Assembly (NCBI GenBank): GCA_012523575.1
Contig: JAAYIF010000039.1
Location: 3,084-67,083, forward strand
Length of the DNA: 64,000 nt
Direction: 5' to 3'
From: Clostridia bacterium
GTDB lineage: Bacteria > Bacillota > DTU086
Shown here: in pieces, positions 9,721 through 10,822 of the stretch
Layout of the letters: each line of letters starts with the position of its first letter
Position numbering within the stretch: position 1 is the first letter of the stretch
The notes under the pieces: model-generated
Databases searched by the model: none
Seen by the model: only the letters and a program-made list of their open reading frames with translations
Told to the model about the DNA's origin: nothing
Translations under genes and position numbers: made by a program

Positions 9721-10822
9721 TTAACTTTTTGCTGCCTGTTGCAGATAAGCCATAATAAAGGGGTCGATATTTCCGTCCATTACTGATTCAATATTCCCCA
9801 TTTCAAAATAGGTTCTGTGATCCTTGACCATGGTATAAGGCTGAAAAACATAGGACCTTATCTGGCTGCCCCAACCAATTTCCGGCTGTTCGCCCCTCTG
9901 CTCAGCCAGCTTTCTTTCCCTTTCCTGCCTTTGCAGTTCAAAAAGTCTGGCCTTTAAAATCTTCAAAGCAGCAAGACGGTTAGCGTGCTGGGATCTTTCA
10001 TTTTGGCACTGGACCACAATCCCCGTGGGCAGATGGGTAATTCTCACCGCAGATTCCGTTTTATTAACGTGCTGTCCCCCTGCACCCCCTGCCCTGAAAG
10101 TGTCTATTTTTAAATCCGAAGGATTGATCTCAATTTCATCATCTTCTTCAACTTCGGGAATAACTTCCACCGAAGCAAAGGAAGTATGCCTTCTCCCTGA
10201 AGCATCAAAGGGGGAGATTCTCACCAGCCGGTGAACGCCCCTTTCAGCCTTTAGATACCCGTAAGCATATTCCCCCTTTACAACGGCTGTTATGCTTTTA
10301 GTTCCTGCTTCTTCCCCGGGAAGGCTGTCCACCACCTCAAGCCCCATGCCCTTTTTCTCCGCCCAGCGGCTGTACATTCTAAAAAGTATATCCACCCAGT
10401 CCTGGGCCTCGGTACCCCCGGCCCCTGCATGAAGGGAAATTATGGCATTGTTTTTATCATAGGGACCGTTTAATTAAATTTTTAATTCCATCTCCCAAAG
10501 TTTCTTATCAATTGCCTTAATTTCTTCATTTAGCTCTTCGAAAAGGGATTCTTCCCCTTCTTCCAGCCCCATCTGCCATAAAGCATAAACATCTTCAAAA
10601 CGCCCTTTTAGTTCGTAATATGAATCAATTTTGTCTTTAATGTCCCTCAGGTCCCGCATAACCTTCTGGGCATGTTCGGGATCGTCCCAAAAATCCGGAC
10701 GGGCAATTTCCCTTTCCATTTCCTCGAGGTCTTTTTCCCTTTTTTCTACGTCAAAGGGAATCCCTCATTTCCTCCAAGCGTTTCTCTATACTCTCCATAT
10801 CCTGCCTTAAATCTACAAGCAT
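9721..10822 (-). CDS. prfB: Peptide chain release factor 2 with programmed +1 frameshift; also contains an unexpected in-frame TAA at 10474-10476
   Basis: Frame 0 from ATG at 10822 gives [23 protein letters not shown], then TGA at 10751-10753 inside CTT TGA C. The +1 frame continues [24 protein letters not shown]...[22 protein letters not shown] (GGQ motif). A TAA interrupts ...[20 protein letters not shown]. Confidence 0.85.
10750..10770 (-). promoter_or_regulatory. prfB autoregulatory +1 frameshift site (CTT TGA C with upstream SD-like GAGGGA)
   Basis: Canonical RF2 recoding site, read directly from the sequence. Confidence 0.85.

Follow-up and report, generated by a model that had tools for sequence, protein, structure and literature searches.

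An in-frame TAA codon in an otherwise standard, frameshift-regulated prfB gene of a Clostridia metagenome contig

In bacterial prfB, the gene of release factor RF2, a programmed frameshift motif has been described that consists of a Shine-Dalgarno-like element with the consensus AGGGGG, followed by CTT, TGA and C (PMC12421855). The same work reported 34 genomes with a broken prfA gene, for which sequencing errors were considered a possible cause until more genomes become available (PMC12421855). For in-frame stops that are read through by the ribosome, a criterion based on conservation of the stop has been used (PMC7918605). The prfB gene described here carries the programmed frameshift site and, further downstream, a second in-frame stop. 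It is located on the minus strand of a 64,000-nucleotide stretch of a contig from a Clostridia bacterium (GCA_012523575.1, JAAYIF010000039.1), that is called the window throughout the text. The source is a contig of a metagenome-assembled genome (MAG) with NCBI locus tags of the GX088_* series. The gene is laid out as follows:

10822-9721, minus strand: prfB, the RF2 gene, with ATG at 10822-10820 and the end stop TAA at 9723-9721
10751..10822, minus strand: frame-0 leader of prfB, from the ATG through 23 sense codons to an in-frame TGA
10761..10766, minus strand: Shine-Dalgarno-like GAGGGA upstream of the slippery site
10750..10756, minus strand: programmed +1 frameshift site CTT TGA C, invariant in three aligned sequences
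10477..10752, minus strand: +1 frame, codons 24-115, RF2 domain 1
10474..10476, minus strand: in-frame TAA, codon 116, next base T; Leu (TTA/TTG) in relatives
9721..10473, minus strand: codons 117-366 and the terminal TAA, with the SPF and GGQ motifs

When a T is skipped at CTTTGAC, a 366-codon RF2 frame is obtained, and its sole internal stop is the TAA at 10476-10474, so that even after the frameshift the reading frame is interrupted at codon 116. All elements of the autoregulatory +1 site, i.e., the Shine-Dalgarno-like element, CTT, TGA and C, are in place and are kept in both close relatives. The GAGGGA sequence is a shorter match to the published AGGGGG consensus (PMC12421855), and its GAGGG core is kept in both close relatives in the DNA alignment. 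Re-reading of the coordinates bore out the original prediction, made from the letters of the window, on both points: the canonical CTT TGA C lies at 10750-10756 and the TAA at 10474-10476 of the full-length frame, and every position that it gave was correct.

The best RF2 relatives are a JGI metagenome protein (P0001; 91% amino-acid identity) and RF2 of Clostridia bacterium 41_269 (P0002; 88%), and both share the gene order recD2-like, secA, prfB, ubiB-like, yitT-like, transketolase. The codons around the site are ATT TAA TTA AAC in the window, ATT TTA TTA AAC in the closest relative and GTT TTG CTT AAT in the next one. Since the TAA stands against TTA of the closest relative, a single T>A transversion from a Leu codon accounts for it, just as had been proposed from the sequence, where the stop was placed at a conserved Leu one substitution away from TTA. 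Leu occupies column 116 in 15 of 15 aligned RF2 homologues. Of a further 160 RF2 genes, taken from Firmicutes that are more distant, 146 also have Leu, and the others M, I or C. No internal stop, nor any stop in column 116, was found in these 160 other genes. An apparent internal stop in RF2 of one further locus (L127) was rejected, as it is the natural terminator of that gene. Comparison with closely related genomes, the check that had been suggested for this site, therefore gives TTA in the closest and TTG in the next relative and makes the stop a singleton. By the conservation criterion for read-through (PMC7918605) the relatives would share the stop; they carry TTA and TTG in its place.

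The allele was also looked for elsewhere. A degenerate exact pattern across the site had no match in genome or metagenome contigs, and a protein-seeded search for the locus in the same species, performed with a generic peptide, returned among the matches listed only relatives with at most 63% identity. In the collections searched there is no further sequence of this species, and the next-best matches reach 88-92% for every protein tested.

Apart from the stop, the gene is intact. For profile scoring the frameshift was applied and Leu was placed at codon 116; the protein obtained in this way scores 527.9 bits against TIGR00020 (prfB), for which the cut-off is 370, and its alignment extends from position 2 to position 353 of the 353-position profile, without a break at the stop of codon 116. 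In the profile search the prfA models remain under their cut-offs for this protein, and both the PCRF and the RF-1 Pfam domains are found. The SPF motif (residues 203-205) and the GGQ motif (residues 248-250) are present, and both columns are invariant in the alignment of 15 homologues. Conserved columns were defined as those with at least 90% conservation, the SecA set being taken across 99 genomes. At 127 such columns of RF2 the only deviations private to the window are L116* and M145I, and at 339 columns of SecA no private deviation was found, so that the changes specific to the window keep clear of conserved sites. The gene is thus not an old pseudogene, a reading ruled out by the intact conserved sites and motifs; it is an ordinary prfB that was under purifying selection until very recently. 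As decay is absent apart from one base, the lesion, if real, must be very recent.

The picture that we favour would be the following. A standard prfB with its +1 frameshift appears in the MAG contig with a T>A change, that turns the Leu-116 codon TTA into TAA. Taken at face value, such a gene would encode a peptide of 115 residues, confined to domain 1, and give no functional RF2. The base probably arose as a read, consensus or assembly artefact, or else is a non-representative variant that was taken up by the assembler.

One may ask whether the ribosome could pass the stop or start again behind it. Near the TAA the two other frames both close within a few codons and, on inspection of the site, no slippery heptamer of the X XXY YYZ type is present at the TAA, which rules out a frameshift or a hop past it. 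UAA followed by U, as here, terminates efficiently in E. coli. Past the stop, neither ATG nor GTG nor TTG occurs in frame until GTG at 10395 (codon 143), located inside the conserved core, and no Shine-Dalgarno-like sequence precedes any plausible restart. Re-initiation is ruled out by the lack of a canonical start ahead of codon 143, and the core of domains 2-4 has neither a start of its own nor a ribosome-binding site.

These observations bear on the idea that RF2 is split by design, with the domain 2-4 core produced by re-initiation in the manner of PrfH, which has no domain 1. The position of the stop speaks in its favour, as it lies near the boundary of domains 1 and 2 and about 10-13 residues ahead of residue 129 of full RF2, where the alignment to the PrfH profile sets in (profile position 4). 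Moreover, it is stated in PMC1586002, in the passage citing Mora et al. (2003), that peptide release in vitro needs no domain 1, and a reviewer comment printed there adds that truncated release factors work in vivo, with slow growth. However, the missing starts and the missing Shine-Dalgarno-like sequence leave this idea unsupported; the PrfH profile aligns to the 224-aa ORF only from position 24, and a product starting at GTG-143 would miss an invariant ten-residue segment. The arrangement is also missing in both close relatives and in all 160 other RF2 genes, and a split factor is therefore highly improbable.

Other lesions were sought by a tblastn gene comparison, in which 16, 19 and 20 window genes were set against the relatives' loci L165, L167 and L168, respectively. 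In the approximately 55 genes compared no frameshift was found, and besides prfB there are only two premature stops:

16091..17434, plus strand: mtaB, a radical-SAM methylthiotransferase gene, with an in-frame TGA at 17246-17248 (codon 386 of 447)
26765..26767, minus strand: TAA ending a family-4 glycosyltransferase gene, five codons ahead of the relative's stop

The mtaB TGA stands 6.4 kb from the prfB stop, at the start of the TRAM domain, in place of AGA (Arg) in the closest relative and of Lys in the next one. A protein considered as a closer mtaB relative (P0287) was rejected, being of the same species as L165. The glycosyltransferase TAA aligns with GGA of the relative and homology (QGI) goes on past it, so that the C-terminal truncation appears to be recent. 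Two gene absences were also noted. The amino-acid permease gene, located between hpf and mtaB in L165 and L166, has no tblastn match in the corresponding part of the window (17435-17753), and the same holds for a Mn-catalase/ferritin-like gene, which in L167 lies between the SH3 and DAGK genes (about 26166-26261 in the window).

The genetic code was approached through terminal stops, which were compared between 55 window genes and their orthologues on four relatives' loci. The window genes end with TAA in 41 of 55 cases, with TGA in 10 and with TAG in four, and the relatives' genes with TAA in 32, TGA in 15 and TAG in eight. TGA thus closes 18% of the window genes, and in nine of these 10 genes the relative compared has TGA as well. 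It ends comFA as well as comFC (19058-19825, minus strand), and in the latter the next in-frame stop comes 22 codons on, in agreement with the original prediction that comFC ends in TGA without a close backup stop. The terminal stops show a mild drift toward TAA (TGA>TAA six times and once in reverse; TAG>TAA seven times and three in reverse), that is not specific for TGA. Two further terminators were recorded. A hypothetical gene of 135 aa ends with TGA at 21793-21795 (minus strand), which is in frame with the downstream comFA and has 661 open codons past it, so that the two genes would be joined if it were read through; in the relative, too, this gene ends with TGA. The end of secA (10856-10861, minus strand) is a TAG with an immediate in-frame TAA, and the relative's secA ends with TAA.

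A code change or a programmed read-through, in which TAA or TGA would be decoded or UAA would serve as a second autoregulatory checkpoint, could draw on the two in-frame stops 6.4 kb apart and on the drift toward TAA. Yet TAA is the main terminator of the window, which speaks against its reassignment, and TGA remains a frequent one, mostly in common with the relative. The lone in-frame TGA, that of mtaB, falls on Arg/Lys and not on the Trp or Gly expected of known UGA reassignments. RF1 reads UAA too, hence UAA cannot sense the level of RF2, and the prfB stop is conserved in no relative. Reassignment of the code is ruled out by the terminal stop usage, as had been anticipated for loss of RF2 through UGA reassignment, and the prfB TAA is not a decoding or regulatory feature. 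The recoding reading as a whole is hardly credible and, even taken together with a split RF2, it has a low probability.

There remains the choice between a real nonsense allele and an error, and here the quality of the window sequence matters. Codon changes were polarised with 41_269 as an outgroup, and the non-synonymous/synonymous counts are 207/431 on the window branch and 54/226 on the sister branch, that is, the ratio on the window lineage is twice that of the sister lineage. Transversions at codon positions 1 and 2 also take a larger share on the window branch (39% vs 25%). When positions 1-21000 of the window were compared with L165 and L166, the window showed about twice the synonymous and about four times the non-synonymous changes of the sister lineage. 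The raised ratio and the excess of transversions could reflect relaxed selection or slight noise in the sequence. An assembly error rate of at least 0.75% was rejected, given the absence of frameshifts in the approximately 55 genes and the absence of private changes at the 339 SecA columns. A miscall rate near 0.1% and a genuinely relaxed lineage are both compatible with the data.

The database record gives some information about how the gene was handled. Two other proteins of the window have NCBI entries of this MAG that are 100% identical to them. An exact protein look-up at NCBI returned the UbiB-like protein (NLO89869.1), SecA (NLO89870.1) and MtaB (NLO89872.1), the last one being a shortened protein of 385 aa that is listed as an ordinary product. 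For the two prfB fragments looked up (an 81-aa and a 224-aa ORF) no NCBI protein was found. UbiB and SecA, whose genes flank prfB, carry consecutive accessions, and together with the lack of a fragment protein this fits an annotation procedure in which no product was assigned to prfB. Judging by the GX locus tag, the source is presumably a biogas MAG project based on Illumina reads and MEGAHIT. That project is described as having used Illumina reads and MEGAHIT assembly (PMC7038595).

On these data one may suppose that the ochre mutation at Leu-116 is real and very recent, carried by a lineage under relaxed selection and compensated from outside the window. We consider this possible but doubtful. 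Survival could then, with the same reservation, depend on a second prfB copy, on a weak ochre suppressor tRNA or on low-level read-through of UAA, favoured by derepressed frameshifting, and the shortage of RF2 might, again tentatively, let ribosomes read through the in-frame TGA of mtaB. Several observations support a real mutation and at the same time weigh against an artefact. Long contigs assembled from Illumina reads by MEGAHIT are rarely miscalled, and one of 71 kb, as here, should show few substitution errors, if the link to the source project, itself only presumed, holds. Beside the prfB stop, the window contains another internal stop and one gene slightly shortened at its C-terminal end, without a single indel in the approximately 55 genes; three such errors would imply about 0.1% of miscalls. 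The doubled non-synonymous/synonymous ratio makes real disabling mutations more plausible, and both internal stops lie at domain boundaries, as mutations filtered by selection tend to do, a regularity that was noticed post hoc. A weak RF2 would, speculatively, make the mtaB TGA tolerable. In the part of PMC7918605 that cites Karow (1998), prfB mutants of B. subtilis are said to restore expression of genes with TGA mutations to 19-54% of the wild-type level, the read-through of TGA in prfB+ cells being 6%.

However, a stop at codon 116 leaves RF2 null and not weakened. Ten of 55 genes still rely on TGA, some of them with distant back-up stops, and an efficient ochre suppressor would be costly where TAA ends 41 of 55. 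The window contains no tRNA genes. Among the best 120 RF2 matches, three proteins from Clostridia-bacterium MAGs were checked and none carries an NLO accession, so that these three include no second prfB product of this MAG. Finally, the rest of prfB shows no decay. The still stronger claim, in which TAA is the real majority allele of an abundant anaerobic-digester Clostridia lineage that lives with an interrupted prfB and about 18% of TGA-ended genes, is very improbable, and equally so is its corollary that the cells get by with traces of read-through, with a suppressor or with a shortened factor, the mtaB TGA being read through as RF2 is short.

Since TGA ends 18% of the genes, the organism still needs RF2, and the written base is probably not the working allele. 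We therefore lean, by a modest degree, to the view that the TAA is an artefact or a non-representative variant and that the working allele of the population has another base here; as between an artefact and a real nonsense allele, the artefact is somewhat more likely, a status that we infer from the surrounding evidence. The original prediction had set a base-calling or assembly error against a real nonsense allele; this framing holds.

If the stop were real, a natural bacterium with a null or nearly null RF2 that goes on using UGA would bear on how reassignment starts and on how essential RF2 is, and, on the very improbable reading given above, it might show the freeing of the UGA codon at its very beginning. 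In practical terms, any interpretation of an in-frame stop that is a singleton and falls in an essential gene of a MAG should wait until the reads have been consulted. Such genes may be lost in annotation, as the prfB fragments without an NCBI protein indicate, or a shortened product may be listed as an ordinary one, as was the case for mtaB.

Set beside the described systems, the window gene is closest to bacterial prfB of the E. coli and B. subtilis type (PMC12421855), with which it has in common the leader running into CTT TGA C, the purine-rich Shine-Dalgarno-like element, the full-length TIGR00020 match, SPF, GGQ and the secA-prfB order. It differs from that type in the additional TAA at codon 116, which is found in no relative, and in GAGGG taking the place of AGGGGG, which is common to the whole clade. 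With the 34 broken prfA genes (PMC12421855) it shares a single disabling lesion of a release factor, seen in the only genome of the species and without a recoding signal; those lesions are frameshifts, whereas here a nonsense substitution stands atop a genuine programmed frameshift. Like the conserved read-through stops (PMC7918605), the prfB TAA is an in-frame stop amid constrained flanks, but unlike them it is a singleton. Loss of RF2 that accompanies UGA reassignment (code 4 of Mycoplasmatota, code 25 of some candidate phyla) resembles the present case in that prfB is disabled on paper, whereas TGA in the window is a frequent terminator common to relatives and prfB is otherwise intact. The gene thus belongs to the ordinary prfB genes, has the standard frameshift and carries a singleton lesion of a single base.
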